DNA of 64,000 nt from Planctomycetota bacterium (GCA_030065025.1 JASJDY010000014.1:13113-77112), one strand, 5' to 3'; shown: positions 7,807 through 45,323, counted from the first letter of the stretch. The notes: generated from the letters alone by a model not told the origin. A program made the numbers and translations.

Positions 7807-8274
7807 ATGGCCGCCTCGTCCACCCGTCGCTCCGCTCTCCGCGTCGTGGGCTGGATCCTGCTCGCGCTGGGCCTGCTCGCGTGGCCCGTGGCCCGCGCCG
7901 TGGATGCCGCTTGGGGCACCGACGTCACGCTGCTCTCCCGCCTACGCACGGCCGAGGAGCGCGAGGCTTGGCGGCGCGGTGGCTGGGATCCCGCGACGGG
8001 CCTGCCTGGACTCTACGGCGTGAAGGACGCTAGGGATCGCGTACGCCTCGTGGGTGTGGAGGAGGAGCGGCTCGTCCGCCCCGAAGAGGATCCCACCCAG
8101 GCTCTGCTGCTGCTCGATGCGCGCGGCGGCCAGGGTCTGCTCCGTGCGCGCGAACTCCGCTTCCGCGCCGCCCTGATCGGGCTCGCGCTAGGTCTTCTCG
8201 GAACTCTGCTGCTCCTGCGAGCGCGGCGTCTCAGCCGCGCGTCTCGGACTTCGCCACCTGCACCGCCTCGATGA
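7807..8274 (+). CDS. Hypothetical membrane protein, two terminal TM helices
   Basis: ORF with hydrophobic helices near both ends. Fills the gap between genes. Confidence 0.55.
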   Translation: MAASSTRRSALRVVGWILLALGLLAWPVARAVDAAWGTDVTLLSRLRTAEEREAWRRGGWDPATGLPGLYGVKDARDRVRLVGVEEERLVRPEEDPTQALLLLDARGGQGLLRARELRFRAALIGLALGLLGTLLLLRARRLSRASRTSPPAPPR

Positions 8275-8452
8275 GGGAGTCGACCTCCGCCGTCTTCGTG
8301 GCGTGATCGGTAGCCTCGGTGATGCGGTGCATGTGATCGACGAGCTCGACCTTGTCGGCGCAAGGCACACAGAGCCGGATCTTGGTGGGCGTCATCTCGT
8401 GGAACACGGTGCGCTCATAGTCGGCATGGCCGCGACAGACGTTGCAGAGCAT
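8231..8452 (-). CDS. Small putative zinc-binding protein (CxxC-x21-CxxC)
   Basis: Strong RBS GGAGGGAGG. MLCNVC...LCVPC followed by a helical tail. Confidence 0.7.
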   Translation of the reverse strand: MLCNVCRGHADYERTVFHEMTPTKIRLCVPCADKVELVDHMHRITEATDHATKTAEVDSLIEAVQVAKSETRG

Positions 8453-8589
8453 GGGCCTCCCTCCGTCCTTGTCTCCTTCCGATGCTACAGGAGGCTGCCT
8501 CGTCTGGGAACGGACTTGCGTTCAAACGTCAACGTAGTGACACGATCGGCCCGCGGCCATACTGACGGCGCGGAGCTGGAGGACGCGCC

Positions 8590-9606
8590 ATGACCGGAGC
8601 ACAGGTCGCGCGATTCGCCCACGTCGCCGTTGCGGGCATCACGCGGGAGTACCCGCACAAACCGGGGCAGGTCATCGCCGGCCCGCACGACGTTCGCGCT
8701 CCGCGCGCGGTGCACCCGGCCTTCTACGGCTGCTTCGACTGGCACTCCGCGGTGCACGGCCACTGGTGCCTCGTGCGCCTGCTCAAGCGGCATCCCGAGT
8801 GGACAGACGGTCGCGACGCCGCCCTCGCTGCCGTCACGACGAACCTCACAGCCGAGAACCTCGTGGCGGAGGCGGCGCTCTTCGACCAGCCGTCGAACCA
8901 CGCGTTTGAGCGCACCTACGGATGGGCCTGGCTGCTGCGCCTCGCGCAGGAACTTCACACCTGGGACACCGAAGACGCACGTGCGCTCGCGTCGAATCTG
9001 CGTCCGCTGGAGGCACGCCTCGTCGAGCTGGCCAAGGCCTACCTGCCGCAGCTGACGATGCCGGTCCGGTCCGGCGAACACGGTGACACGGCCTTCGCGT
9101 TGGCGTTCTTTCTCGACTACGCCCGCACCGTGCAGGACGTCCAGCTCGAGCAGCTCTGCACGCAGCGCGCAAGCGAGTACTACAGGGAGGACGTCGACTA
9201 CCCGAGTGCGTACGAGCCGTCGGGACACGACTTCTTCTCAGCCGGCCTGAACGAAGCGGACCTCATGCGCCGGGTCCTGCCGCCCGCGGAGTACGCGGTG
9301 TGGCTCGACGCCTTCCTCCCCGGCCTCGCCGGCGGCGACCTCGGTCCCCTCGCACGACCGGCGTCGGTCAGCGACGTGACGGACGGGAAGCTCGTGCACC
9401 TCGCCGGACTGAACCTCACTCGGGCCTGGACCCTGCGCGGCATCGCACAAGCGCTACCCGCGGAGGACACGCGCCGCACCTACCTGGAGGACCGAGCACA
9501 GGCGCACACGCAGGCGGGCCTGGACTACGTCTTCAGCGGTCACTACGCGGGCGAGCACTGGCTGGCCAGCTTCGCCGTCTATCTCCTGACGGATGCCGGT
9601 CTGTAG
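8590..9606 (+). CDS. DUF2891 family protein
   Basis: REYPHK, HPAFYGCFDWHSAVHGHW, FERTYGWAWLL, YAGEHWLASFA. GGAGG RBS. Confidence 0.85.
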   Translation: MTGAQVARFAHVAVAGITREYPHKPGQVIAGPHDVRAPRAVHPAFYGCFDWHSAVHGHWCLVRLLKRHPEWTDGRDAALAAVTTNLTAENLVAEAALFDQPSNHAFERTYGWAWLLRLAQELHTWDTEDARALASNLRPLEARLVELAKAYLPQLTMPVRSGEHGDTAFALAFFLDYARTVQDVQLEQLCTQRASEYYREDVDYPSAYEPSGHDFFSAGLNEADLMRRVLPPAEYAVWLDAFLPGLAGGDLGPLARPASVSDVTDGKLVHLAGLNLTRAWTLRGIAQALPAEDTRRTYLEDRAQAHTQAGLDYVFSGHYAGEHWLASFAVYLLTDAGL

Positions 9607-9613
9607 GCGAGCG

Positions 9614-9657
9614 CAAAACGAACCACGGGCGGCGAGCCGTGAGGCGCGCCGCCCGTG
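9614..9657 (-). terminator. Intrinsic terminator between convergent genes
   Basis: 11-bp stem CACGGGCGGCG/CGCCGCCCGTG (9624-9634/9647-9657), followed by a U-rich run on the minus strand. Confidence 0.6.
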
Positions 9658-9679
9658 ATCGCGTCGTCGTGACGAGCGA

Positions 9680-10579
9680 CTACTTGTCGGTCGTCTTGCC
9701 GTCCTTGCCGCAGGGGCAGGCGGTCTTCTCGCAGCCACCGCACTCGGACATGGGCTTGCCGGTGCAGGGGCAAGCCTTCTTCTTCGCGGAAGCGTCGCCC
9801 GTCGTGCCGGCGTCGCCGGTCGGAGCCGAGGCGCCGGAGGCCTTGCTCTTGTCGCAGCCACCACCGGAGCAGTCCTTCGACTTGTCGCAGCTCTTGGCCT
9901 TGTCGCAGCCGCCGCAGCTCGACTTCTTGCCCGAGGCGTCGCCGGTGGTGCCGGCGTCGCCCGTCGCCGCCGAAGCGCCGCCGGACTTGCTCTTGTCGCA
10001 GCCGCCGCAGCTCTTCGACTTGTCGCAGCCACCGCCGGAGCAGTCCTTCGCCTTGTCGCAGCTACCGCAGCACTTCGAGCTCTTCGCCGTCGCGCCGCTC
10101 GTGCCGGCGTCGCCCGTCGGAGCAGCCGCGCCGCCCGACTTGGACTTGTCGCAGCCGCCGCAGCTCTTGGCCTTGTCACAGCTCGCGGCCTTGTCGCAGC
10201 TGCCACAGTCGCTGCCGCTCTTGGCGGCCATCATCTTCTTGAAGTAGCCGATGGTGCGATCGGCGTTCCAGCCGTCGGCGACCATGGCGTCGCGCAGGCC
10301 GGCGAGCTTCGCGTCCTTGCTGGCGAACCAGGCGCGCCACTGCTTCTCGCCCTTCTCGGTCGAGGGGCAGGCGCAGTCGTCGGACACGTGGCCGGCAACC
10401 CACTTCATCATCGAGTGGATCGGCGACTCGGTGGCCGTCTCGGGCTTCTTCGCGACGGTCGTGGGCGCCGTCTTCGTCTCGGCCGCGGGCTTCGCGACGG
10501 GGGCATCCTCGCCGGCGAAGGCGAGACCACCGGCCACGAGAGCGAGGCCGAGGGCGAGGGCAACGATCGTGTTGCGCAT
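9680..10579 (-). CDS. Secreted cysteine-rich repeat protein
   Basis: Signal peptide MRNTIVALALGLALVAGGLAFA. About 25 Cys, mostly in repeated CxxCDK / CDK units separated by three TGDAGT(S/T)G spacers. RBS GGAG. Confidence 0.8.
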   Translation of the reverse strand: MRNTIVALALGLALVAGGLAFAGEDAPVAKPAAETKTAPTTVAKKPETATESPIHSMMKWVAGHVSDDCACPSTEKGEKQWRAWFASKDAKLAGLRDAMVADGWNADRTIGYFKKMMAAKSGSDCGSCDKAASCDKAKSCGGCDKSKSGGAAAPTGDAGTSGATAKSSKCCGSCDKAKDCSGGGCDKSKSCGGCDKSKSGGASAATGDAGTTGDASGKKSSCGGCDKAKSCDKSKDCSGGGCDKSKASGASAPTGDAGTTGDASAKKKACPCTGKPMSECGGCEKTACPCGKDGKTTDK

Positions 10580-10785
10580 ACGGTGATTCTCCAGATCGAG
10601 GGCTTGCGAGAGTCAGCTGCCGCTGCGCCCGGACTTCCGGCGCCGCCGCGGCTCATATGGGGCGCGATGGTAGCAGCGTGCGCCGCCGCCGCTGCACTCG
10701 GCCTGGGACCAACGACCGAGCGGGCGACAGGGCCCAGGAACTGGGGCTCTAAGGGGTGAAGCGGCGATGAAGACGCCCGCCCGCA

Positions 10786-15917: not shown

Positions 15918-17978
15918 CTAGGGTCCGTGCGATGCGGGCTCACGGGCGACGATGTTGCCCGCGGCATCCAGGAAGCGGACCTGGGCCTGCTGCGGAGGTC
16001 CGGAGTTGATCTGGATCTGGAACGGCGTGGTGCTGAAGGGCTGCCCGGCGACGATCGGGTCGCCGACGACATCGTCGTCGAGCAGGAACGAGACACCGTC
16101 GCCGCTCGTCTGGCCGATCCAGCCGGCCGGCGCGGAGCCACCGGGCGGAACCTGGGATGAGTTCCACTGCGGCGTCTGCTCGGCGTTCACAAGCTCGATC
16201 GCCACGATCTCGGGCATGAGCGCCACCTTCGGGTCGCTCGCGCCGGGTCCGGGGGCGATGGTGAGCTCACCGACGAAGTCCGGCGGCTGCGCAAAGGGCA
16301 GCGGGAAGTTGCAGGTCCAGACCTCGTGCACGACGCTCACGAGGCACTTGAGGATCTGCACGCGCACGCCCGGCTCCCGCAGGCGGATGCTGATCGTGTA
16401 GTCGACCGTTCGCGGCGGCCCGTCGATCGCGGTGGAGTCGATACCGAAGCCCAGCGGATTCGCGCCAATCGGCGGCGGCGGGTTGGTGGGCGGGAACGCC
16501 GGCGTGCCGTCCGGGTTGAACAGCTCGATCTCGAAGCAGAGCGGATCGCCCCCGATGCCCATCTTGCCGTTGCAGTTGACGACGCCGGCCTGCGTGGGCC
16601 CGGCCGCGGGCGGGATCAGCACGGCGGGCGGCCCGAGCGGGCAGAAGACGCTGGCGCCGTGACCGATCACCTTGTCATCGCAGTCGTACCACCAGTAGCC
16701 GCCGGCCGGCGGACTGCCGCCGCCGCCCGTGCAGCACTCGACGACGAGCGTCATGTAGGCGTAGGACACGTTGCCGGTGTCGTCCTCCACCCGCAACGTC
16801 GGCGTGTAGACGCCGCGCTCGGTGTACGTGAAGGTCGGGGTGAGGGAGGAGCCGTCGTCGAACTCCCCGTCGTTGTCGAGGTCCCACGTCGTCGTGTCGA
16901 TGTTGCCGTCGGGATCGGAGGCGTCTCCGACGAACTGGATGGGCGTGCCGATGGAGCCGAGCACCGTCATCGCGCGCGCACGCGCGCTCGGGAAACGCTC
17001 GATGCCGGGACCGGCGACGATGCTGACCGTCTCGAGCGCGAGGCTCGTCTTGCCGTCGTCGTCCGTCGCGCGAGCGCGCACGCGGTACGCAGATCCTCCG
17101 GGACCGGGCCAGGCGAGGCTCGTGATCGTGCGTCCGGACGCGTCCGTGAAGACGCTGTCGTCGTTCGTGTCCCAGGCGATCGACGTGAGGGTGCCGCCGT
17201 CCACGTCGGCACCAAGCGCGATGAAGTCGGCCGTGCCACCGGTGGTGAACGTGTTCACTGCGTTGTCGTCGCGCTCCACCTGGAGGCCGGGACCGAGGTC
17301 GGGCATGGAGGTGTCGTCACACAAGAAGAGCGTCAGCGAGGCGGTGCTCGAGCTACCGCCGGTGCTGTCGACGCGGCAGGTGACGGTGACCTGGCCGGGA
17401 CCCGCGATCGTGCGCGTGACGGTGCGCGTCAGCGTGGTGAGGTCCACGGTGCCGTCGCCGTCGAAGTCCCAGTTGTAGTCCGCGATGCTGCTGCCAGGAG
17501 TGACGTCGGCGGCTTCGGCGACGAAGAGGGCCTGCATGTCCTCCTCGCCGAGGAGGGCCTGACAGCGGACCTGCACGGCCGGCGCCAACGGAGCCGCCGG
17601 CGGGCCGACGGCGACGACGCAGGTGGCCTCCGCGGTGTCCCCGGCGGCATCCGTCACCACCAACCGGACGGCGCGCACGCCAGGCGTGGGGTAGCTGAAG
17701 CTGGGCGACTGGAGCGTGGAGTCGTCGGTCGCACCGTCGCCGTCGAGGTCCCAGGCGTAGGTGAGCGCGGTGCAGTCCGGGTCGGCGCCCTGGCCGAAGA
17801 ACTGATACGTCCCCGCGGCGCCCGCCACCGAGCCGGCCACGAAGATCTGGGCGGCCGGCCCCGAGTCGCTGCTCTGGGGCGGAGGCGTGAAGCCCCCCCC
17901 ACCGCCTCCGCCGCCGCAGGCCGCCACGAGGAACAAGGTCGCGCCCAGGGCGCAGAACGACAGCCAGGTTGATTGCAT
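15918..17978 (-). CDS. PKD-domain lipoprotein
   Basis: Lipobox LVAAC plus poly-Gly. Repeated YxWDxDGDG / WDLDNDG PKD motifs. GAGGAG RBS before ATG 17978. Confidence 0.8.
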   Translation of the reverse strand: MQSTWLSFCALGATLFLVAACGGGGGGGGFTPPPQSSDSGPAAQIFVAGSVAGAAGTYQFFGQGADPDCTALTYAWDLDGDGATDDSTLQSPSFSYPTPGVRAVRLVVTDAAGDTAEATCVVAVGPPAAPLAPAVQVRCQALLGEEDMQALFVAEAADVTPGSSIADYNWDFDGDGTVDLTTLTRTVTRTIAGPGQVTVTCRVDSTGGSSSTASLTLFLCDDTSMPDLGPGLQVERDDNAVNTFTTGGTADFIALGADVDGGTLTSIAWDTNDDSVFTDASGRTITSLAWPGPGGSAYRVRARATDDDGKTSLALETVSIVAGPGIERFPSARARAMTVLGSIGTPIQFVGDASDPDGNIDTTTWDLDNDGEFDDGSSLTPTFTYTERGVYTPTLRVEDDTGNVSYAYMTLVVECCTGGGGSPPAGGYWWYDCDDKVIGHGASVFCPLGPPAVLIPPAAGPTQAGVVNCNGKMGIGGDPLCFEIELFNPDGTPAFPPTNPPPPIGANPLGFGIDSTAIDGPPRTVDYTISIRLREPGVRVQILKCLVSVVHEVWTCNFPLPFAQPPDFVGELTIAPGPGASDPKVALMPEIVAIELVNAEQTPQWNSSQVPPGGSAPAGWIGQTSGDGVSFLLDDDVVGDPIVAGQPFSTTPFQIQINSGPPQQAQVRFLDAAGNIVAREPASHGP

Positions 17979-18035
17979 GCACGACTCCTCGGATCCGGTG
18001 AATGAGACCCCGGACCGGAACAACACCCCGGAGCG

Positions 18036-19001
18036 ATGGTGCCCGCGGGCCCGGGATCGGTCAACCGCGCCGGCCGGAAACGTCCGCCGGTAGCATGGCC
18101 GCCCATGGCCTCAGCCGACGCCCCGGCGCTTCCCGTCGCCCTGCTCAGCGCCCCGGCGCTCGGCGACGGTCTGCTGACGCTGGTGCTCGCCAACAACCTG
18201 CGCCGGCAGGGCCGCGCCTGCGTCCTCCACCACGACCAGCTGCTGTCACTCCGATCGTGGGCGCCCTGGGCCACGATCGAGCCGCTGCCGGACGAGCCCG
18301 AGCGCATGGCGTGGTTTGCCGAGGCCCGACCGCTCTTCGTCGGCGATCCGGCACTGGTGCCGCCCGGCGCAGGCGCGGGTCCCGGTCAGCTCGTCTTCAC
18401 CAAGGACCGCTGGGACCGTCAGCATCCCTACCTACGAAGCCTCCAGCGACACGCGGAGCGGGTGCTCGACGCGCGCTGGACAACCGACGCGTGTGAGCTC
18501 GTCGCGCCGGCCGGAGTCGCCCGCGACACGCATCCGCGGCGCATCGCGCTGCATCCCTTCAGCGCGCGCCCCGCCAAGGACTGGCCGCCGGAGCGCTGGG
18601 TCCGTCTCGCGCTCCACCTCCGCGAGCGCGGCTGGGAACCCGAGGTGCTCCTCGCCCCGGGCGAGGAGGAGCGCTGGCGCGCGGCGGCGGGCGACGCGTG
18701 CGCGATCGCGGTGCCGGGCCCGCTCGACGCGGTCGCAGCCTGGCTCCTGGGCTCGGCGGCGGCCATCGCGGGCGACTCGGGCATCGGTCATCTGGCCTCG
18801 GCCGTCGGCGTGCCGACCCTGTCGCTGTTCCGCAAGGCCAGCGCCGCGCGCTTCTGGCGCCCGACTTGGGGCCGCACCGCCGTGGTGACGGCACCGTGGC
18901 GGCTGCCGGGCGGCCGCGGTCACCGCCATTGGGGGCGCCTGCTCTCCGTGCGCCGCGTGGCGCGACGCTTCGAGCAGTTCGTGGGGCGACCGCCGGCCTG
19001 A
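18036..19001 (+). CDS. Glycosyltransferase family 9 (heptosyltransferase-like)
   Basis: LGDGLL, ALHPFS...KDWP, GDSGIGHLASAVGVPTLSLF. Alternative start at 18105. Confidence 0.75.
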   Translation: MVPAGPGSVNRAGRKRPPVAWPPMASADAPALPVALLSAPALGDGLLTLVLANNLRRQGRACVLHHDQLLSLRSWAPWATIEPLPDEPERMAWFAEARPLFVGDPALVPPGAGAGPGQLVFTKDRWDRQHPYLRSLQRHAERVLDARWTTDACELVAPAGVARDTHPRRIALHPFSARPAKDWPPERWVRLALHLRERGWEPEVLLAPGEEERWRAAAGDACAIAVPGPLDAVAAWLLGSAAAIAGDSGIGHLASAVGVPTLSLFRKASAARFWRPTWGRTAVVTAPWRLPGGRGHRHWGRLLSVRRVARRFEQFVGRPPA

Positions 19002-35958: not shown

Positions 35959-37299
35959 CTACCGGCCGCCCTTGGCCGCCCGGAACAGCTGCTGCCAGCG
36001 CTGCTCGTCGGCGCGGTAGCGGGTCTGCGCGGCCTGGAACTCGGCGACGGCGGCCTCGAGCATCTCGCGCACCTCGGGCCGGTCCAGGTCCTTGCGCTGC
36101 AGCAGGCTCATCAACCGGCGGCTCGACTCGTTCACGTCGCGCATCGCGCGCATGTAGCTCAGCGCGGCCGAGCGCAGGTTCTCGAAGGCGATCTGCTTGT
36201 CGTCGGGCTTGTTCAGCAGCTTCCAGGGATGCGCCCGCAGGTCCTCGGAGGTGTCGAGCAGGTTGTGCGCCGTGTCGTTCAGACGACCGACCAGCACCTT
36301 CACGTCCACACCGAGGTCGCTCAGGATGCGCCGCGCCTCCGGGCCGATGCCCGAGAACTCATCCGACAGGCTCGCGAAGTTGCGGCCGGCCGTCTCGAGG
36401 TCTGCGAGGAACCGATCGATCGGCCCCTTCGCGCCCGCGAGGATCTCGTCGAGCTTGCGCACGACCTCCTTGGCCGACGCCATGAGCTCCTTCAGGTCGG
36501 CGCGCACGTCGCCGACGGCGCCCGAGCCCTTCTCGGCCATGACCTTCATCTCGCCGGTCGCGGCCTCGAGGTTGCCGGCGATGGTCGCGACGCGCGACTC
36601 GAGTCCCTCGAGCGTGCGACGCAGCGACCCGATCGCGGCACGGGCGTCCTTGTCGAGCTCCTCGGTGTTGAACGCGTCGACCTTGCCGCGCAGCGTGCGG
36701 ATCAGGTCCTTGGCCTCGACCATGACCTCCCCGCCCTGCGTGGCGAGCATGCCGATCTTGTCGGCGAGGTCGTTGATCTTGCCGCTGATGTCCGCGAGCC
36801 CAGGCGCCTCCTTGGCCATCAACGGGTTGGCCTTGGTCTGCTCGTCCTCGAGGTTCTCGCGCGCGAAGCCGGGGAGCAGGGCGAGCGTACGGATGCCAGT
36901 GAGGCTCTTGTCGATCTGGGCGGTCGTGCCGACAGGCACGATCTGGTCGGCGGGCATCTTCACCTGCGCGACGACGAAGATCTCGCGGAACGTGCCCGAG
37001 TCGCCGTCGGCGAGCCCGAGCTTGAGACGGTCGGCCTGGGTGAGTGGCAGCCCGCCGCCGTCACCGCGCACCTCCTCGCGCTGCTCGACGGCGGAGATGC
37101 GTCCGACCCGGATGCCGTTCATCAGGACGGGGTCGCCGATCTTCGGCGCGACGTAGCCCTGGCTGAAGCGGAGATAGATGTGGCGGTAGTTGCCCCAGAT
37201 CGGCTCCTCACCACCGGCGAAGTAGACGAGCGCCAGCAGACCGGCGATCGCAGCGAGGACGACGACACCGGCCTTGAACTCTGCGCGCTTGGTGTACAT
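35959..37299 (-). CDS. mlaD: MCE/MlaD family protein with long helical tail
   Basis: EFKAG + TM, VLMNGIRVGRIS MCE motif, coiled-coil C-terminus. Confidence 0.8.
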   Translation of the reverse strand: MYTKRAEFKAGVVVLAAIAGLLALVYFAGGEEPIWGNYRHIYLRFSQGYVAPKIGDPVLMNGIRVGRISAVEQREEVRGDGGGLPLTQADRLKLGLADGDSGTFREIFVVAQVKMPADQIVPVGTTAQIDKSLTGIRTLALLPGFARENLEDEQTKANPLMAKEAPGLADISGKINDLADKIGMLATQGGEVMVEAKDLIRTLRGKVDAFNTEELDKDARAAIGSLRRTLEGLESRVATIAGNLEAATGEMKVMAEKGSGAVGDVRADLKELMASAKEVVRKLDEILAGAKGPIDRFLADLETAGRNFASLSDEFSGIGPEARRILSDLGVDVKVLVGRLNDTAHNLLDTSEDLRAHPWKLLNKPDDKQIAFENLRSAALSYMRAMRDVNESSRRLMSLLQRKDLDRPEVREMLEAAVAEFQAAQTRYRADEQRWQQLFRAAKGGR

Positions 37300-37309
37300 C
37301 GAATCGCTC

Positions 37310-38128
37310 CTAGAGCCGGAAGAGGAGGAAGTAGTTGAGGATCGCGTCGCTGACGATGATCGCGATGATCGACGTCACCACTGCGCTCGTCGTCGCCCGC
37401 CCGACGCCCTCGGCGCCCCCCTGGACCTTGAATCCTTGATAGCACCCGATGGTGCCGATGATGAGGCCGAAGACGCAGGCCTTGAACAGGCCGCGCCAGA
37501 CGTCCTCCGTGTAGAGCGAGTCCCAGGCGTGCTCGAAGAACGAGTTCACGCTCATGTCGAGGACCTGCACCGACACGATCAGGCCGCCGACGATGCCGAC
37601 GAAGTCGGCGAGGATCGTCACGCACGGGACCATCAGGAGCACGGCGAGCAGGCGCGGCGCCACGACGAAGCGCACGGGGTTCAGCGACATCGTGCGCAGC
37701 GCGGTGATCTCCTCGGAGACGACCATCGTGGCGATCTCGGCGGTGAGGGCCGCGCCGATGTAGCCCGTCATGATGATGCCCGTCAGCAGCGGCCCCAGCT
37801 CCAGCACGATGCCGACGCCGAGCAGGTCGCCCACGTACTCGGTGAAGCCCAGGTCGGTCAGCACCTTGCCGCCGATCAGGGCGAGGATCATGCCGACGAA
37901 GAAGTTGACGACGAACACCACAGGCAGCGCTCGGGGTCCGGCGCGAACGCACTGTGTCCAGAACGCCTTGCGGCCGATGCCGCGTCCGCGGAACGGCCCG
38001 GCGACCGCGTGGCCCACGGTATCGCGGAACAGCAGCGCCAACCCGCCGATGAACTGGAACAGCCCGAGGGTGGCACCTCCCATGGAGGTGACCAGGTCCT
38101 GCAGTCGTCCGCTCCTCCGGGTCGTCAT
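37310..38128 (-). CDS. mlaE: MlaE family ABC permease
   Basis: ELGPLLTGIIMTG, AEIATMVVSEEITAL, VVAPRLLA, GAEGVGRATTSAVV. Confidence 0.9.
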   Translation of the reverse strand: MTTRRSGRLQDLVTSMGGATLGLFQFIGGLALLFRDTVGHAVAGPFRGRGIGRKAFWTQCVRAGPRALPVVFVVNFFVGMILALIGGKVLTDLGFTEYVGDLLGVGIVLELGPLLTGIIMTGYIGAALTAEIATMVVSEEITALRTMSLNPVRFVVAPRLLAVLLMVPCVTILADFVGIVGGLIVSVQVLDMSVNSFFEHAWDSLYTEDVWRGLFKACVFGLIIGTIGCYQGFKVQGGAEGVGRATTSAVVTSIIAIIVSDAILNYFLLFRL

Positions 38129-38133
38129 GTGTG

Positions 38134-38463
38134 CTAGTCGGCTACGGCCTCGGCGCGCGTGTCACGCAGATCGAAGATCGTGCTGAGCTGGGCCAGGTCG
38201 AAGAGCTTGCGTACCTCGGGCGACAAGCCGCACAGCCGCAGCTTCCCGCCGTACTTGCCGACGGCCTGCAGCGCCTCGATGAGCGTCGCCAGGCCGCTGG
38301 AATCGATGAAGGCGACGTCGGTGAGGTCCACCACCAGGGGCGAAGCCTGGTTGCCCAGGGCGGTGCGCAGGTGGCCCCGCAGCTCGGGACTCGTGTGCAT
38401 GTCCACTTGCCCCTCGACGATGAAGAGGGTGGCGGACCCATGCGTTTCCTGGGTGACGTTCAT
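38134..38463 (-). CDS. STAS domain anti-sigma factor antagonist
   Basis: GQVDMHTSPELR, VVDLTDVAFIDSSGL (phosphoacceptor Ser). ATG 38463. Confidence 0.9.
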   Translation of the reverse strand: MNVTQETHGSATLFIVEGQVDMHTSPELRGHLRTALGNQASPLVVDLTDVAFIDSSGLATLIEALQAVGKYGGKLRLCGLSPEVRKLFDLAQLSTIFDLRDTRAEAVAD

Positions 38464-38909
38464 GTCGTTTCCTTCTCGGCGGCCGCCTCGGCCGCGCCAT
38501 GCTTCACCATGGTGAGCGTGGTCCCCCCGTGCTCGTTCTTCACGTACTCCACGCGATCCATGGTGGACTTGATGAGGTGCACACCGATGCCGCCCGGCCG
38601 GACCTCGTCCAGCGGTCGCGACTCGATGTGTTTGGGATCCACGAACTGGCCGTAGTCGACCAGGTCGAGCTGCAGCTCGTGCTCGCCGGCGATCACGTCC
38701 AGGTCGATGCGCTGATCGTCCCGGCCGTCGTACGCGTGGCGGATGACATTGGTGACCGCCTCGGTCACGGCAAGCAGGATGCGCTGGGTGAGATCGGCGT
38801 CGAACCCCGAGAGGTTTGCGCCCTCCTGCACGACCGAGCGGACGAGCGGCAGGTACTTGGGGTGCGACGGCACGCTGCAGCGCACCCGGTCGAGGGCCGC
38901 CGGCATCAT
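38460..38909 (-). CDS. RsbW/SpoIIAB-like anti-sigma factor Ser kinase
   Basis: LAVTEAVTNVIRHAY, DYG, GGIGVHLI. ATG 38909. Confidence 0.9.
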   Translation of the reverse strand: MMPAALDRVRCSVPSHPKYLPLVRSVVQEGANLSGFDADLTQRILLAVTEAVTNVIRHAYDGRDDQRIDLDVIAGEHELQLDLVDYGQFVDPKHIESRPLDEVRPGGIGVHLIKSTMDRVEYVKNEHGGTTLTMVKHGAAEAAAEKETT

Positions 38910-39292
38910 GAGCCGCCTCGCTGCGCGCCCTGCGGCTGGAGCCTCGCGCGCCATGCTTCCTGCGCGGCGCGGCGCTCGGCTGCCGGCGCGAAGGCCTGGT
39001 AGCCGACGTCCTCGCCGGTGAGCTCACGGAGCGCGGCGCCGGCCTGGAGGCGCACCGTCTCATCGCGATCGTCGAGGAGCTCGATCAGGTCGGGCAGCCA
39101 GCGCCGGTCGCCGCGGGCGGCGACGTCCTGGATGGCCAGCGTGCGGCGGAGCGCATCGGGGTGGTGCAGATCGAGCTCCGGCTGGACCGGGCGAGGCGTG
39201 TCGGTGCTGGCGCAGGCCGCGAGCAGGAGCAGCAGCGCGCCCACGGCGACCCTCGGGGCGGACTTCGGCAAGAGCGGTGCACTGGGAGGCAT
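38906..39292 (-). CDS. HEAT-repeat lipoprotein
   Basis: Lipobox LLAAC, LIELLDDRDETVRLQAGAAL. Confidence 0.75.
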   Translation of the reverse strand: MPPSAPLLPKSAPRVAVGALLLLLAACASTDTPRPVQPELDLHHPDALRRTLAIQDVAARGDRRWLPDLIELLDDRDETVRLQAGAALRELTGEDVGYQAFAPAAERRAAQEAWRARLQPQGAQRGGS

Positions 39293-39382: not shown

Positions 39383-40363
39383 CTAACGAAGAAGCCCTTC
39401 CGCGCGATACCAGGCGGCCGTCTCCGCGAAACCGGTCACGAGGTCCTTGGTGGGACTCCAGCCCGTGGCGGCCTGGAACGGGCCCGGCGCGCAGACCCAG
39501 TCGCCGCTGACGAGCTCCTGCATCCGCTCGGCCCCGAGCACGGAGCTGCGGCCGGTCCACTGGCTGACGAGGTCCGCCGTGGTGCCGACCAGGCGCATGA
39601 AGCTCTCGGGCAGGACGAGCCGGCGGCTGCGGCGGCCGACCGCGGACTCGGCGGCCGCGATGATGTCGGCCAGCGTCACCACCTCCGGATGGGCCACGAG
39701 CCAGGCCTGCCCGAGCGCCTCCGGGCTGCGCGCCGCGAGGATGAAGGCCCGGGCCAGATCCTCCGCATGCACGAGGCTGTAGCGCTTCGTCGCCCGTCCG
39801 GCGACCAGCGAGAAGCCCTGGGCCGCGGCGCGGAAGAGGCGCAGGAACTCAGCGTCCCCGGGACCGTACACCCCGGGCGGGCGCAGGATGGTGACCGGAA
39901 GTCGCTCGCTGCGCTCGAGGACGTGGCGTTCCGCGAGCGCCTTGCTGGCGCCGTACGCGGTCACCGGCCGGAGGGGACTCGCCTCCGTCAGCGTGCCGGC
40001 CGGCCCGGCGGGCCCCACCGCCGCCATGCTCGAGCAGAACACGAAGCGACCGGTCAGCCCGGCCTCCTCCGCGGCGTCGAGCAGACGACGCGTTCCGTCG
40101 GCGTTCGTGGCGCGCATGGCGCGCGGTGACAGACTGCTGACCAAACCCGCCAGGTGATACACCTCGTCGACGCCGCGCACCGCGGCGACGAGACCACCGC
40201 GCCGGCGGAGATCCCCGCGCACGATCTCGACGTCGAGCCCTTCGAGGGCCGCCGGAACGCCCTCACGGCGGTACAGGCAGCGAACGGCCGCCCCCTCCGC
40301 CAGCAGCAGCCGGACGAGGTGGGATCCGATGAAGCCGTGGCCGCCGGTGACGAGGATCCTCAC
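39383..40363 (-). CDS. Extended SDR (NAD-dependent epimerase/dehydratase family), candidate ceramide reductase
   Basis: TGGHGFIG, YHLAG, SSMAA, YGASK, RPPGVYGP. Divergent from spt-bCerS. The CerR role rests on gene context. Confidence 0.75.
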   Translation of the reverse strand: MRILVTGGHGFIGSHLVRLLLAEGAAVRCLYRREGVPAALEGLDVEIVRGDLRRRGGLVAAVRGVDEVYHLAGLVSSLSPRAMRATNADGTRRLLDAAEEAGLTGRFVFCSSMAAVGPAGPAGTLTEASPLRPVTAYGASKALAERHVLERSERLPVTILRPPGVYGPGDAEFLRLFRAAAQGFSLVAGRATKRYSLVHAEDLARAFILAARSPEALGQAWLVAHPEVVTLADIIAAAESAVGRRSRRLVLPESFMRLVGTTADLVSQWTGRSSVLGAERMQELVSGDWVCAPGPFQAATGWSPTKDLVTGFAETAAWYRAEGLLR

Positions 40364-40600
40364 GAGGCGCCGAGGATAGCGACGGAGGCCGGATCCGCGC
40401 GCCTGTACCCGGGACCGTGGCTCCGGCGGTCCCAGTTGACGGGTCCCTGGGCAACCCTAGGATGGGGCCGCCTCAGAGCGGTCGGCCTACCCGGGCCGGC
40501 CGCTCTGGCGCATGTACCGAGGGAGTCGGCTGCGAGGCTCGTGACCACGGCGCGACGGCGCTGGAGCACGCACGGCGCACGCCGGCTGAGGACACCAGAC

Positions 40601-41794
40601 TTGGACCTGTTCAACAAGGCCTACAGGTACCGACGCGCCAACGACCTCAAGGCGACGGGGCTGTACCCCTACTTCCGCCCGATCACCGAGTCGTGCGGCG
40701 GCACCCGCGTCCAGATCGGCGATCGCGAGCTGGTCATGGCCGGCTCCAACAACTACCTCGGCCTCACGCACGACCCGCGCGTCATGAAGGCGGCCCGCGA
40801 AGCCGTGGACCATTTCGGCACCGGCTGCACCGGCTCCCGCTTCCTGAACGGCACGCTCTCCATCCACGAGCAGATGGAGGAGCGGCTGGCGGCCTTCCTC
40901 CAGAAGGAAGCCTGCATCACCTCGGGCACCGGCTACCAGACGAACGTCGGGGCCATCGCCACGCTCGCCGGCAAGAGCGACGTCATCTTCGGCGACCGGG
41001 ACAACCACGCGTCGATCATCGACGGCGCGCGTCTGGCGTTCGCCCGCCACCTCAAGTACCGCCACAACGACATGGAGGACCTCGAGCGCCTCCTCCAGAC
41101 GACCGAGCTCGTCCCGGGCGGCGGCCGCATCATCATCACCGACGGCGTCTTCTCGATGCTGGGCGACCTGGCCCACGTCCCCGAGATCGTCGCCCTCGCC
41201 AAGAAGTACGAAGCCCGCATCATGGTCGACGACGCGCACGCCGTCGGCGTCGTGGGTCCGAACGGCCGCGGCACACCCGAGCACTTCGGCGTCAGCGACG
41301 ACGTCGACCTCGTGATCGGCACCTTCTCGAAGTCGTTCGCGTGTCTCGGCGGGTTCGTCGCCGGGCCGCGCGAGGTCATCGACTACATCCGTCACACGAG
41401 CCGCTCGGTCATCTTCTCCGCAAGCATGACGCCGGGCAGCGTGGCGACGGTGCTGGCCTGCCTCGACATCATCGAGGCCGAGCCCGAGCGGCGCACCCAG
41501 CTCTGGGACAAGGTCGCGTACATGAAGCGCGGCTTCGAGGAGCTCGGCTTCGACGTCATCGACGGCGGCAGTCCGATCCTCTCCATCGTGATCGGCGACG
41601 ACACCACGACGATGGAGTTCAACAAGCAGCTCTTCGAGCAGGGTGTCTTCGTCAACCCGGTCCTGCCCCCCGCGGCGCCTCCCGGGATGAGCCTGCTGCG
41701 CACGTCGTACATGGCCACGCACACGCAGGACGATCTCGACGAGATCCTCGGCGCGTTCAAGGTCGTGGCCGAGCGCCTGCGCATCATGGGCTAG
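40601..41794 (+). CDS. spt: Serine palmitoyltransferase (alpha-oxoamine synthase family)
   Basis: TTG start after GAGGA, (M)DLFNKA...GLYPYFRPI, GSNNYLGL, GSRFLNGT, NHASIIDG, DDAH, GTFSKS (PLP Lys). Followed by a bCerS-like gene. Confidence 0.8.
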   Translation: MDLFNKAYRYRRANDLKATGLYPYFRPITESCGGTRVQIGDRELVMAGSNNYLGLTHDPRVMKAAREAVDHFGTGCTGSRFLNGTLSIHEQMEERLAAFLQKEACITSGTGYQTNVGAIATLAGKSDVIFGDRDNHASIIDGARLAFARHLKYRHNDMEDLERLLQTTELVPGGGRIIITDGVFSMLGDLAHVPEIVALAKKYEARIMVDDAHAVGVVGPNGRGTPEHFGVSDDVDLVIGTFSKSFACLGGFVAGPREVIDYIRHTSRSVIFSASMTPGSVATVLACLDIIEAEPERRTQLWDKVAYMKRGFEELGFDVIDGGSPILSIVIGDDTTTMEFNKQLFEQGVFVNPVLPPAAPPGMSLLRTSYMATHTQDDLDEILGAFKVVAERLRIMG

Positions 41795-41802
41795 CCGAGC
41801 AG

Positions 41803-42930
41803 GTGGCCGCGCCGCTGCGCATCGACGCCGAGGACGGGCCGGCCGACCGCGACGCGTTCATCGACTTCCCGTACGCGCTCTACCGGGGACACCCCGTGTG
41901 GGTCCCGCCGCTGCGCATGGCCGAGCGCGACGTCATGGACCGCGCGAAGAACCCCTTCTTCCAGCACGCCGAGGCGCAGCACTTCCTCGCGCGACGCGGC
42001 GAACGCGTGGTCGGACGCATCGCCGCGTGCGAGAACCGGCTCCACAACGAGGTGCACGAGGACCGCGTTGGCTTCTTCGGTTTCTTCGACGTCGAGGCGG
42101 ACCCCGAGGCGGCGACCGGCCTCGTGGAGGCGGCGCAGGCGTGGTGCACCGGCCGCGGCCTCGCGCCGATGCGCGGCCCGGCGAACTACTCCATGAACGA
42201 CTCGTGCGGCGTGCTCGTCGACGGATTCGACGAGCCGCCGTTCCTGCTCATGCCGCACAACCGGCCGGACTACGACGAGCTGCTGCAGGGCGCGGGGCTC
42301 ACGCCGGTGAAGGACCTCGTCAGCTACTGGATCAGCACGCGCAACACGATCCCCGAGCGCTTCGTTCGCGTCGTGGACCGCCGGCTGGCCCGCTCGAACA
42401 TCGTGATCCGCGACATCGACCTCAAGCACTTCGATCGCGAGGTACAGATCCTCAAGGACATCTACAACCGCAGCTGGGAGAAGAACTGGGGCTTCGTCCC
42501 GGCGACGGAGGCCGAGTTCGAGCACGCGGCGAGCGATCTCAAGATGCTGGTCGAGCACCGCGTCTCGGGTGTCGCGGAGCGCGACGGCGAGCCCGTGGCC
42601 TTCTCCGCCTTCGTGCGTGACCTCAATCGGATCCTGAAGCGCGGCAGCGGCAACGGGCGGCTCTGGCCCACGCTGTGGGCGCGGCTGGCGCTGGGACTCA
42701 AGCGCATCAAGTACGCGCGCTGCGTGCTGCTGGGCATCGTGCCGGAGGCACGCGGCAACGCGATCAACGAGGCGTTCTTCGTGCGCGCGATGCGCCGCGG
42801 CCTGGAGCACGGCTACTACGGGGCGGAGTGCGGCTGGGTGCTCGCGGACAACGAGGCGATGCAGAAGCCGATCGAGGTGGCCGGCGGCAAGGCGACGAAG
42901 CGGTATCGGATGTACGAGACGCAGGCGTAG
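41803..42930 (+). CDS. GNAT-fold N-acyltransferase, bacterial ceramide synthase (bCerS/YghO-like)
   Basis: FIDFPYALY...WVPPL...KNPFF, VGRIAA, GFFGFF, MRGP.NYSMND..G.LVDGF, MPHN, WEKNWGFVP, WVLADN. GTG start 41803. Confidence 0.75.
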   Translation: MAAPLRIDAEDGPADRDAFIDFPYALYRGHPVWVPPLRMAERDVMDRAKNPFFQHAEAQHFLARRGERVVGRIAACENRLHNEVHEDRVGFFGFFDVEADPEAATGLVEAAQAWCTGRGLAPMRGPANYSMNDSCGVLVDGFDEPPFLLMPHNRPDYDELLQGAGLTPVKDLVSYWISTRNTIPERFVRVVDRRLARSNIVIRDIDLKHFDREVQILKDIYNRSWEKNWGFVPATEAEFEHAASDLKMLVEHRVSGVAERDGEPVAFSAFVRDLNRILKRGSGNGRLWPTLWARLALGLKRIKYARCVLLGIVPEARGNAINEAFFVRAMRRGLEHGYYGAECGWVLADNEAMQKPIEVAGGKATKRYRMYETQA

Positions 42931-43171: not shown

Positions 43172-44257
43172 TCATTTGGCGGGCTGGCCGAGTTTGGCGC
43201 GCAGCTCGGTCTCGTTGTCGCGCCACCACTGGCGCCACTTCTTCTGGATGCGGATGCGCTCGTTCTTGGTCAATCCGCTGACGAAGTTGAAGTCCTGACC
43301 CGTGATCCGATGCAGCGCCTCGCTGGCCGCCGTACGCACGAGGTCGTCCTTGTCGTTCAGCGCCTCGATGAGGTCCGGCACCGCTGCGACGGCCTGGATC
43401 TCCCCCAGCGCGGTGGCCGCGCCGAGGCGAGCGTAGAAGTCCTTGTGCTTGTTGAGCACGCGCACGAGGTCCGGCACCGCCTCGAGCGCCTTGAGGCGCG
43501 CCAGCTCGATCGTCGCCGAGAAGACGATGTCTTCGTCGGAGTCACGCAGCCGCTTGCGCCAACGCTCGATCTCCTTCAGCCGCTGCTCCTCTTCCTCGGA
43601 GGGCGTGGCGGGCTTGGGCTCTTCCTTGGGCTGGACCGGCTCGGCCGGCGTGGGCTGCGCCGGCTCGCGGCGCTTGGCCTGCTCGAGCTCACGGCGGAGC
43701 TGGTCGGCCTCCTGCTGGATGCGGATCTTCCAGTCGACGAGGTCGGCCATCTGCCCCTGCAGCTTCACGACGAGCCTGTTGAGCGCCTGCAGGCGGTCGC
43801 TCATCTGGTTGCTCGTGTCGCGCAGCAGCTTGTCCATCGCCTCGGTCGTGGCGCCCTTGATGCTCGCTCCGTGCTCCGCCAGCCGCGTGTTGAGGGCCTT
43901 CTCGAAGGAATCGTTGAGCTTGGTCAGCTCCGTGCTCTGGGCGTCGAAGCGCTTGACGGCGCGCTCCTCGGAGGCGCGCACGCTGTCCGCGACGTGCTCC
44001 TTGACCGAGGGCAGCTCGGCGATCGTCAGCGGCTTCTTCTTCTCATCCAGCTTCTGGACGAGGAGGTAGGTCGCGACGCTTGCCCCGAACAGCGCGAGCA
44101 GGAGCGTCAGCCACGAGCGCCAGCCGCTCATCTCGACGCTGCGCTTCAGGGCGCAGGCGACGTGCTGGCTCTTCTGTCCGGAGACGATGGCGCGACCGGC
44201 GTCGAACTCGCCATCGGGAATCGACTCGTTGCAGACGGAACAGAAACGGATTTCCAT
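43172..44257 (-). CDS. Bitopic protein: Cys/His N-terminal domain, TM, coiled coil, HEAT repeats
   Basis: FCSVC...HVAC, one TM helix, C-terminal LRDSDEDIV/LNDKDDLVR HEAT units. Confidence 0.8.
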   Translation of the reverse strand: MEIRFCSVCNESIPDGEFDAGRAIVSGQKSQHVACALKRSVEMSGWRSWLTLLLALFGASVATYLLVQKLDEKKKPLTIAELPSVKEHVADSVRASEERAVKRFDAQSTELTKLNDSFEKALNTRLAEHGASIKGATTEAMDKLLRDTSNQMSDRLQALNRLVVKLQGQMADLVDWKIRIQQEADQLRRELEQAKRREPAQPTPAEPVQPKEEPKPATPSEEEEQRLKEIERWRKRLRDSDEDIVFSATIELARLKALEAVPDLVRVLNKHKDFYARLGAATALGEIQAVAAVPDLIEALNDKDDLVRTAASEALHRITGQDFNFVSGLTKNERIRIQKKWRQWWRDNETELRAKLGQPAK

Positions 44258-44348
44258 GGTCGTGGTCCCCGGGAGAGGGTTGCGGAGGCTCCATCTTGTG
44301 AACGCTCGGTAGGGCGCGCCGGCGCGCCCGTTCCGGAAATCCGGGCCG

Positions 44349-45323
44349 CTAGCCGCCGCCTGCGCCCCCGGCCCGGGGCTGTCCGAGGCGCGCGCGCACC
44401 TCGTCCTCGTGGGCTCGCCACCACTCCTTCATCTTGTTGCGCGCCGTGCGGCGCTTGCGCATGCCGGCCGTCGCCGAGAGCTCGGTGTTGAACCCCGTGA
44501 TCTCGCGCAGCGACTTGTTGGCCTGCTGGGCGACGAGCTCCGACTTGTCGACGAGCGCCTCGGCCAGGGCCGGGACGGCGTCGGCCACCTGCATCTTGCC
44601 GAGCGCCGCGGCGGAGGCCGCGCGCCCGAACTCGTCCTTGTGGGTGCCGAGGATCTCGATCAGGCGCGGCACGGCGTCCATGACGCGGTGCTCGCGGATC
44701 TTCTCGATCGCCGGGAAGAGCACCTCGAGATCCTCGCTGCGCAGCCCCGCGCGCGCCTTGGCGACCTCGGCGGCCACGATCTTCGGGTCCTTCTGCTCGA
44801 CCGCCGGGAGGGTCGGTCCCTTGCGAGGCGCCGTCCCCTTGTGCGCCGGTCCAGGCGCGGGGGCCGGACCCTTCGTGACCACCTCCTTGATGATCTGGGG
44901 CGGACGCTTCTCCACCACCTCGAGGCGCTTGCCAAATGCCGCGAGCTCGGCCCGGAGCTGCTTCAGCTCGGCGCCCGTACGCTCGAAGCCGCGGATGGCC
45001 TCCTCGAGGGTCTCCAGCTTGCCGTAGTTGGCATCCGCGGCGTTCTCCGCCGTCTCCTGCACGAGCTTCAGGCCTTCTTCGATCCGGCCCTGGAGAGCGT
45101 CGAAGCGCGACAGACGCAGATCGATGTTGCGCTGCCGCTCCTTCACCTCGGCGCTCATCTGCAAACGCGCTTCGTGCATGAGCTTGCGTAGATCCGGATG
45201 CCCTGCGTCGGCGACAGGCGCGCTACCGGTGGCGGTCGTCCCCTGATCGTTCTGCGACTGCATGTACAGATAGGTCGAGACCGCGGCCGCGTACAGCGCG
45301 AGGAGCACGACGATCTTGGACAT
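44349..45323 (-). CDS. N-anchored coiled-coil + HEAT-repeat protein
   Basis: N-terminal hydrophobic helix, coiled coil, AVPRLIEIL/AVPALAEAL HEAT units, and a C-terminal WW motif similar to the neighbouring gene. Confidence 0.8.
   Translation of the reverse strand: MSKIVVLLALYAAAVSTYLYMQSQNDQGTTATGSAPVADAGHPDLRKLMHEARLQMSAEVKERQRNIDLRLSRFDALQGRIEEGLKLVQETAENAADANYGKLETLEEAIRGFERTGAELKQLRAELAAFGKRLEVVEKRPPQIIKEVVTKGPAPAPGPAHKGTAPRKGPTLPAVEQKDPKIVAAEVAKARAGLRSEDLEVLFPAIEKIREHRVMDAVPRLIEILGTHKDEFGRAASAAALGKMQVADAVPALAEALVDKSELVAQQANKSLREITGFNTELSATAGMRKRRTARNKMKEWWRAHEDEVRARLGQPRAGGAGGG

Follow-up and report, generated by a model that had tools for sequence, protein, structure and literature searches.

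A probable ceramide-synthesis cassette of the Spt, bCerS and CerR type in an uncultured lineage of Planctomycetota

Does a planctomycete carry the genes to make ceramide, and are three neighbouring genes between positions 39383 and 42930 of a 64,000-nucleotide stretch of DNA from a Planctomycetota bacterium (GCA_030065025.1, JASJDY010000014.1:13113-77112) such a set? Throughout, the window means this whole stretch at its full length. The trio consists of a gene for a short-chain dehydrogenase/reductase (SDR) on the minus strand, then a divergent gene for an alpha-oxoamine synthase (AOS) on the plus strand and, directly behind it on the same strand, a gene for an acyltransferase. We consider it probable that these genes together encode the bacterial synthesis of ceramide (dihydroceramide), as a compact cassette of the Spt, bCerS and CerR type, Spt being the serine palmitoyltransferase. 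This reading is based on homology, reciprocal best hits, synteny, clade membership, catalytic residues and a predicted fold, together with the neighbourhood and co-occurrence of the genes across the phylum.

The three genes lie at the coordinates first claimed for them, and the divergent SDR, the synthase with its GTFSKS motif and the GNAT-like gene that follows after 8 nt, all mentioned in the preliminary description of this DNA, are indeed present. The cerR-like gene (P0003) occupies 39383-40363 on the minus strand, divergent from spt, and encodes an extended-SDR NAD(P)H-dependent reductase of 326 amino acids. It is separated by a divergent intergenic region (40364-40600), with a promoter-like site and a GAGGA sequence, from the spt-like gene (P0001; 40601-41794, plus strand, alternative start 40541), which encodes a pyridoxal 5'-phosphate (PLP)-dependent AOS of the serine palmitoyltransferase clade and ends at the TAG codon 41792-41794. 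The bcerS-like gene (P0002; 41803-42930, plus strand) starts with GTG at 41803, leaving a gap of exactly 8 nt to the P0001 stop, and its product is a predicted tandem-GNAT N-acyltransferase of 375 amino acids. The start of P0001 is ambiguous, TTG 40601 giving a protein of 397 amino acids and GTG 40541 one of 417; the TTG is the more likely of the two, because a GAGGA (40588-40592) lies 8 nt 5' of it and the resulting N-terminus fits that of the Sphingobacterium multivorum serine palmitoyltransferase (SPT). Upstream of spt-bcerS there is a sigma-70-like site, TTGACG-16-TAGGAT (40436-40463, plus strand), which agrees with the consensus at 9 of 12 positions and is a consensus match only; the scanned 4.1-kb region holds two promoter-like sites, against 0.2 expected. 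The G+C content of the window is even (65-74%), and because it is this high throughout, long spurious open reading frames (ORFs) are abundant. The arrangement of the SDR, AOS and GNAT genes is far beyond chance; of 20 diverse genomes of the phylum, 10 show the same divergent order.

With respect to the AOS, P0001 matches the Pfam family Aminotran_1_2 (E 3e-54) and carries the motif VIGTFSKSFA. Among the NCBIfam models, SerpalmtaseCFB ranks first with 514 bits, followed by BetaP (407), the Kbl/BioF models (381-396) and AlphaP (321). The closest match in the PDB is the S. multivorum SPT (3a2b, 8guh), at 420 bits, E 7e-125 and 51% identity over 378 residues, against 286 bits for Kbl, 272-288 for the Sphingomonas Spt and 271 for a cysteate fatty acyltransferase. 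In both the hidden Markov model and the PDB scores, the margin of Spt over Kbl/BioF exceeds 110 bits. In a maximum-likelihood tree, P0001 and 20 cassette AOS proteins of the phylum cluster with all four Spt references (the SPTs of S. multivorum and S. wittichii and two Spt proteins of the Caulobacter cluster) at a support of 100/99, while the Kbl proteins of E. coli and Coxiella, the Thermus Kbl/BioF and the E. coli BioF fall outside this clade. This tree also took in the second AOS of the window's genome and, from three Caulobacter genomes, the AOS paralogues; CqsA, ALAS and the cysteate acyltransferase stood outside its sampling. The second AOS (contig C18:10202-11356, minus strand) is a Kbl, with 64% identity to the E. 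coli Kbl and a joint clade at 100/100. Grouping with BioF/Kbl had been named beforehand as the outcome that would overturn the assignment of P0001 to the characterised Spt proteins, and it did not occur. A Kbl/BioF identity for P0001 is thereby ruled out by the tree, and that of a sulfonolipid-type cysteate acyltransferase is ruled out on scores (271 bits for PDB 28eh against 420), a comparison of scores and not of positions in a tree.

The active site of P0001 points in the same direction. The catalytic residues H156, D230, H233, T261, S263 and K264 are all kept, K264 within the GTFSKS motif and the first five aligning to H138, D210, H213, T241 and S243 of the S. multivorum SPT. Every PLP- and L-serine-contact residue of that enzyme, as taken from PMC10196870, is conserved. 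Moreover, the positions that distinguish Spt from Kbl (G80-S81, A212, S243 and A274 in the S. multivorum numbering) carry the Spt residue in P0001, where they include G98-S99, A232 and A294.

The acyltransferase P0002, which reads in part ...AFIDFPYALYRGHPVWVPPLRMAERDVMDRAKNPFFQHAE... and contains FIDFPY, WVPPL and KNPFF, is unfamiliar to the domain libraries: searches of Pfam and NCBIfam returned no match at E 0.01. The Caulobacter bCerS orthologue likewise has no NCBIfam match, so this silence is a gap in the libraries and not counter-evidence. A sequence search of the PDB gave chance matches only. The AlphaFold2 model of P0002 (predicted local distance difference test 87.8, predicted template modelling score 0.87) is all alpha/beta, without a long hydrophobic helix, and its best Foldseek matches are tandem GNATs (5kf1, 7q3a, 2wpw and MshD; E 4e-13 to 4e-10). 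The model thus supports a soluble protein with a tandem GNAT fold and no transmembrane segments, and backs the GNAT-like fold that had been predicted for it.

For the pathway comparison we have employed three Caulobacter genomes, those of the strains sp. AP07, D5 and KR2-114 (found by a CtrA scan), and not that of strain NA1000. P0002 has a single match in each of them (E 7e-67 to 2e-60, 35-38% identity, residues 7-373), and these matches all lie inside the sphingolipid cluster, where they occupy the position of bCerS (CC_1154), 2.4-7 kb downstream of spt. When the Caulobacter bCerS was searched in turn by tblastn against the whole genome of the window, P0002 was the only match. The two proteins have in common the blocks NPFF-HAE, VGRI, GP-N-S-N, NWG-VP-T-E, E-WVLE-N and Y-YR-YE. 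The signature by which P0002 had been recognised holds in part: WVPPL and KNPFF have counterparts in the Caulobacter orthologue (WVVPL and TNPFFEHAE), but FIDFPY does not, its place being taken by FINLAN. The reciprocal best hit at the bCerS position of the cluster argues, at the sequence level, for the bCerS role that had been proposed. The Caulobacter Spt likewise finds P0001 as its best match in the window's genome, and the reciprocal best hits hold for P0001, P0002 and P0003 alike.

P0003 matches the Pfam families Epimerase (E 7e-42), 3Beta_HSD and NAD_binding_4 and has the motifs TGGHGFIG (GxxGxxG), CSSMAA and YGASK (YxxxK). Its best match in each of the three Caulobacter genomes is the gene two upstream of spt, which is the CC_1164 position (E 5e-33 to 6e-32), the runners-up reaching only E 2e-24 or weaker; and in the reverse tblastn search with the protein at the Caulobacter CerR position, P0003 was the sole match in the window's genome at E up to 1e-5. 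A tree of SDR proteins places P0003, together with ten SDRs from other cassettes, in one clade with the genes at the Caulobacter CerR position; six paralogues fall outside it, and the support is a moderate 92/96. The P0003 and Caulobacter proteins also share the motifs SS(M/L)AA, Y(G/A)ASK and RPP(G/A)(V/I)YGPGD. NCBIfam puts HpnA (138 bits) and SdmB first for P0003, every score falling far short of its cut-off, and HpnA is likewise the best, if weak, match of the Caulobacter CerR orthologue. The reciprocal best hit and the joint clade are what would be expected of the CerR role earlier suggested for the SDR. As to its location, CerR in Caulobacter is located in the periplasm, as a peripheral protein of the inner membrane (PMC11087976). 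The Rossmann motif of P0003 starts at residue 7, which leaves no room for a classical signal peptide; the Caulobacter orthologue itself has only about 9 residues ahead of its Rossmann strand, so the sequence alone does not settle a periplasmic location.

To place the trio within its phylum, we have surveyed 401 genomes drawn evenly from the Planctomycetota. A bCerS-like gene was called as a P0002 homologue at E up to 1e-20, and an Spt-like gene as a match to NF047600 at E up to 1e-125, a threshold that only Bacteroides thetaiotaomicron passes among 14 control genomes. By these measures 173 of the 401 genomes have a P0002 homologue and 132 an Spt-like AOS. Both genes are found in 131, the bCerS-like gene only in 42, the Spt-like gene only in a single genome (in which the end of a contig cuts the locus) and neither in 227; a bCerS-like homologue is, in other words, present in 131 of the 132 Spt-positive genomes. 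The co-occurrence has a Fisher p of 8e-67, a value uncorrected for phylogeny. Positions of both genes are listed for 116 genomes, and in 85 of these the pair lies side by side. Twenty diverse loci were then viewed with 8-kb flanks: ten have a divergent SDR next to the AOS-GNAT pair, two have the AOS-GNAT pair only and eight have the GNAT gene alone, six of these eight with an unlinked Spt-like gene. The SDR therefore adjoins AOS-GNAT in 10 of the 12 sampled cassettes. Within the window's own family, the Spt-like gene is present in 17/17 sampled genomes and the bCerS-like gene in 16/17, and in all 11 relatives compared the AOS lies directly upstream of the GNAT gene.

The host had been described as probably a planctomycete, and the genes for NusA and InfB, which share the window with the trio, sustain this. 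NusA is 77-94% identical to proteins labelled as coming from Planctomycetota, Planctomycetia or Planctomycetes metagenome-assembled genomes (MAGs), with one Solirubrobacterales outlier, and several relatives of P0002 are also labelled Planctomycetota. The source genome is a 3.9-Mb MAG of 285 contigs and 89% completeness, and the close relatives of the host are all uncultured. Among the close relatives of the window's proteins in public records, otherwise labelled Planctomycetota, two bear odd labels, a GNAT protein of 72% identity (P0009, "Rhodothermaceae bacterium") and a NusA of 91% identity (P0143, "Solirubrobacterales bacterium"); both records are probably mis-binned or mislabelled MAG contigs.

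Several observations weigh against the reading of the trio as a ceramide cassette. P0001 misses every NCBIfam equivalog cut-off for Spt, scoring 514 bits against the 640 of CFB, 407 against the 500 of BetaP and 321 against the 670 of AlphaP. These cut-offs are lineage-specific; that of SerpalmtaseCFB is reached by none of the 401 genomes of the phylum, and the Spt proteins of the three Caulobacter genomes (L086-L088) are likewise below that of SerpalmtaseAlphaP, with 483-518 bits against 670. Since they score under the cut-off, SerpalmtaseAlphaP would not name the Spt of the very genus in which the pathway was elucidated. A control genome of C. vibrioides is also below this cut-off. A preference for a given amino-acid substrate cannot be read from the sequence of P0001. 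Furthermore, the names bCerS and CerR rest on orthology to Caulobacter sp. genomes and not to NA1000, a curated model exists for neither protein, and the identity of the trio to the Caulobacter proteins is only 30-39%. The 42 genomes of the phylum that carry a bCerS-like gene without an Spt-like one also count on this side, and because of them the bCerS-like family is not strictly tied to Spt. Perhaps the Spt-less branch of the family acylates something other than a sphingoid base. Two of these 42 genomes have tandem duplicate copies of the bCerS-like gene (G334:C1:692166-694533 and G166:C134:31705-34005). Finally, no lipid analysis showing ceramide in any planctomycete was found in the literature searched.

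Could the trio then be making something else? The amino acid used by the cassette might not be serine, and its product would then be a sphingolipid-like lipid such as a 1-deoxyceramide from alanine, a lipid on a glycine-derived base or a sulfonolipid from cysteate, with N-acylation and reduction proceeding as for ceramide. Bacterial Spt enzymes do take alanine and glycine at low efficiency (PMC10196870), the cysteate fatty acyltransferases form a branch of the superfamily to which Spt belongs and have the catalytic scaffold in common with it (PMC13692747), and P0001 is, as said, under the curated Spt cut-offs. We nevertheless regard this alternative as unlikely, in view of the residues that surround the side chain and carboxylate of serine (N52, G80, S81 and S243 of S. 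multivorum), which are identical in P0001, and of the 420 bits to the S. multivorum SPT against 271 to the solved cysteate acyltransferase, although the latter comparison is one of score only.

Doubt of another kind concerns the composition of the cassette and its origin. SDRs are numerous and promiscuous, two of the 12 sampled AOS-GNAT loci have none within 8 kb and the best NCBIfam matches of P0003 are the HpnA (138 bits) and SdmB models, far below cut-off; spt and bcerS could thus cooperate on their own, beside an unrelated sugar or sterol-type epimerase/reductase that became their neighbour by chance. This seems very improbable to us: the divergent position of the SDR is kept in 10 of these 12 loci, across families, the Caulobacter CerR orthologue has HpnA as its best NCBIfam match too, and P0003 is the reciprocal best hit of the CerR-position gene, with common motifs and a clade at 92/96. 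Even harder to credit is the idea that the trio's contig came from another phylum and was binned wrongly, the planctomycete host being an artefact. A MAG of 285 contigs and 89% completeness leaves room for such an error, as do the Rhodothermaceae (GNAT, 72%) and Solirubrobacterales (NusA, 91%) labels on close homologues, but nusA and infB lie on the trio's own window, the NusA relatives at 77-94% identity are almost all from Planctomycetota, Planctomycetia or Planctomycetes, the G+C is even over the window (0.65-0.74) and the family carries the Spt-like gene in 17 of 17 genomes and the bCerS-like gene in 16 of 17. A ceramide cassette of the Spt, bCerS and CerR type therefore remains the reading that we prefer.

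How such a cassette would operate can be sketched on the model of the Caulobacter pathway (PMC11087976); the substrates, the order of the steps, expression, the location of CerR and the final lipid with its head group are what we infer. Spt, a soluble PLP enzyme, would condense L-serine with a long-chain acyl thioester to 3-ketodihydrosphingosine. The putative bCerS, from the same operon as spt, would N-acylate this product to an oxidised ceramide, and CerR would then presumably use NAD(P)H to reduce the 3-keto group and so form dihydroceramide. The absence of linked AcpR/AasR genes and the Bacteroidota-like branch of the Spt suggest acyl-CoA as the acyl donor. No ORF for an acyl carrier protein (ACP) or an acyl-CoA synthetase was found within about 5 kb of the trio, and the Caulobacter AasR gave only a weak partial match in the window's genome, on another contig (E 2e-15).

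The genes around the cassette deserve some comment. After cerR, on the same (minus) strand, 35959-39292 encodes a HEAT-repeat lipoprotein, an RsbW-like kinase, a STAS protein, an MlaE permease and an MCE/MlaD protein (446 amino acids), with a promoter-like site (39359-39331, minus strand) between cerR and this block. The same block follows cerR in both of the same-family loci that have enough flank (L132 and L133). As part of a system common to the whole phylum it was rejected, being absent within 8 kb in all 18 loci from other families, eight full trios included. Just downstream of bcerS, on the opposite strand (43172-45323, minus), there are genes for two paralogous proteins of 361 and 324 amino acids, each with a coiled coil in its middle part and, at the C-terminus, a HEAT-like repeat similar to the small HEAT lipoprotein (38906-39292); the 361-residue gene is kept beside the cassette in L133, along with HU and TPR genes. 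One might speculate that in this family the cassette and a partner-switch-regulated Mla-like system form one unit that moves sphingolipid to the outer membrane and, more broadly, that ceramide lipids have been overlooked in the envelope of about a third of Planctomycetota species, a proposal that we ourselves hold to be doubtful. If it were true, the Mla-like linkage would offer one possible explanation of how bacteria traffic their sphingolipids, a question that is still open.

What, then, does the locus add to what was already known? The preliminary description had presented sphingolipid potential as new for the Planctomycetota. On this point it was preceded by Ding et al. 2024 (PMC11334938), who, working with Black Sea metagenomes, reported Spt-like genes in 138 Planctomycetota MAGs and in 38 phyla, often with CerR and bCerS nearby, including "clade B" loci in which bCerS and CerR are co-localised with the Spt-like gene; nor is the combination rare, since 131 of our 401 genomes carry both spt-like and bCerS-like genes. 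The earlier interpretation thus loses its novelty, while its host and its pathway call, the latter as a prediction from sequence that has the support of each computational test applied to it, stand. The genomic insight is already known; the gap on the experimental side is a real one. The loci of Ding et al. come from the same phylum and invite the same argument, in which an Spt-like gene with bCerS and CerR close by indicates sphingolipid potential, but theirs was a community-scale study, without a description of the window's lineage or of the architecture of its cassette. The locus reveals no new enzyme, mechanism or system. What it does add is a further case of the Spt/bCerS/CerR pathway, well supported by genomic evidence, from an uncultured lineage of Planctomycetota, as a compact divergent three-gene cassette that is conserved across many families of the phylum. 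It also lends support to the claim, drawn from metagenomes, of a widespread sphingolipid potential beyond Bacteroidota, Myxococcota and Alphaproteobacteria.

One of the closest known systems is that of Caulobacter crescentus, whose pathway employs Spt (CC_1162/CCNA_01220), bCerS (CC_1154/CCNA_01212) and CerR (CC_1164/CCNA_01222), according to Stankeviciute et al. 2022 and Olea-Ozuna et al. 2021 as they are cited in PMC11087976 and PMC11324152. The same three enzyme families are found in the window, with bCerS alike over its full length and CerR alike in its Rossmann, S-YxxxK and RPPxxYGPGD motifs. The layouts differ: the window trio is contiguous, with a divergent cerR, whereas the Caulobacter genes are spread over a 17-gene region. 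In Caulobacter sp. AP07, for example, the SDR (8189-9103), Spt (9469-10650) and acyltransferase (17633-18718) genes lie on one contig, where an acyl-CoA-synthetase-like ORF precedes the SDR gene and an ORF for an acyl carrier protein stands between that gene and Spt; this is the same layout as CC_1165-CC_1162...CC_1154, the genes of which are required for ceramide (PMC11324152). P0001, moreover, falls in a Bacteroidota-like branch, with 51% identity to the S. multivorum protein against 38-39% to the alphaproteobacterial Spt. The Rhodobacterial acyl-ACP-dependent system, composed of Spt, AcpR and AasR, is set apart by its linked genes for an ACP and an acyl-ACP synthetase, which the window locus lacks. 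In the Bacteroidota the three ceramide genes are reported to be unclustered (PMC11334938), whereas in the window they are adjacent. The cysteate fatty acyltransferases CapB, SulA and CFAT (28eh) belong to the same AOS superfamily and serve a pathway of similar logic, a condensation followed by reduction and N-acylation; they form, however, a distinct branch with a remodelled substrate pocket (PMC13692747) and are far more distant from P0001 than a true Spt is (271 against 420 bits). The closest solved relative of P0001 is the S. multivorum SPT, with which it is identical in the PLP-binding and substrate-contact residues and from which it differs in having Ile in place of M271 and Thr in place of A79.

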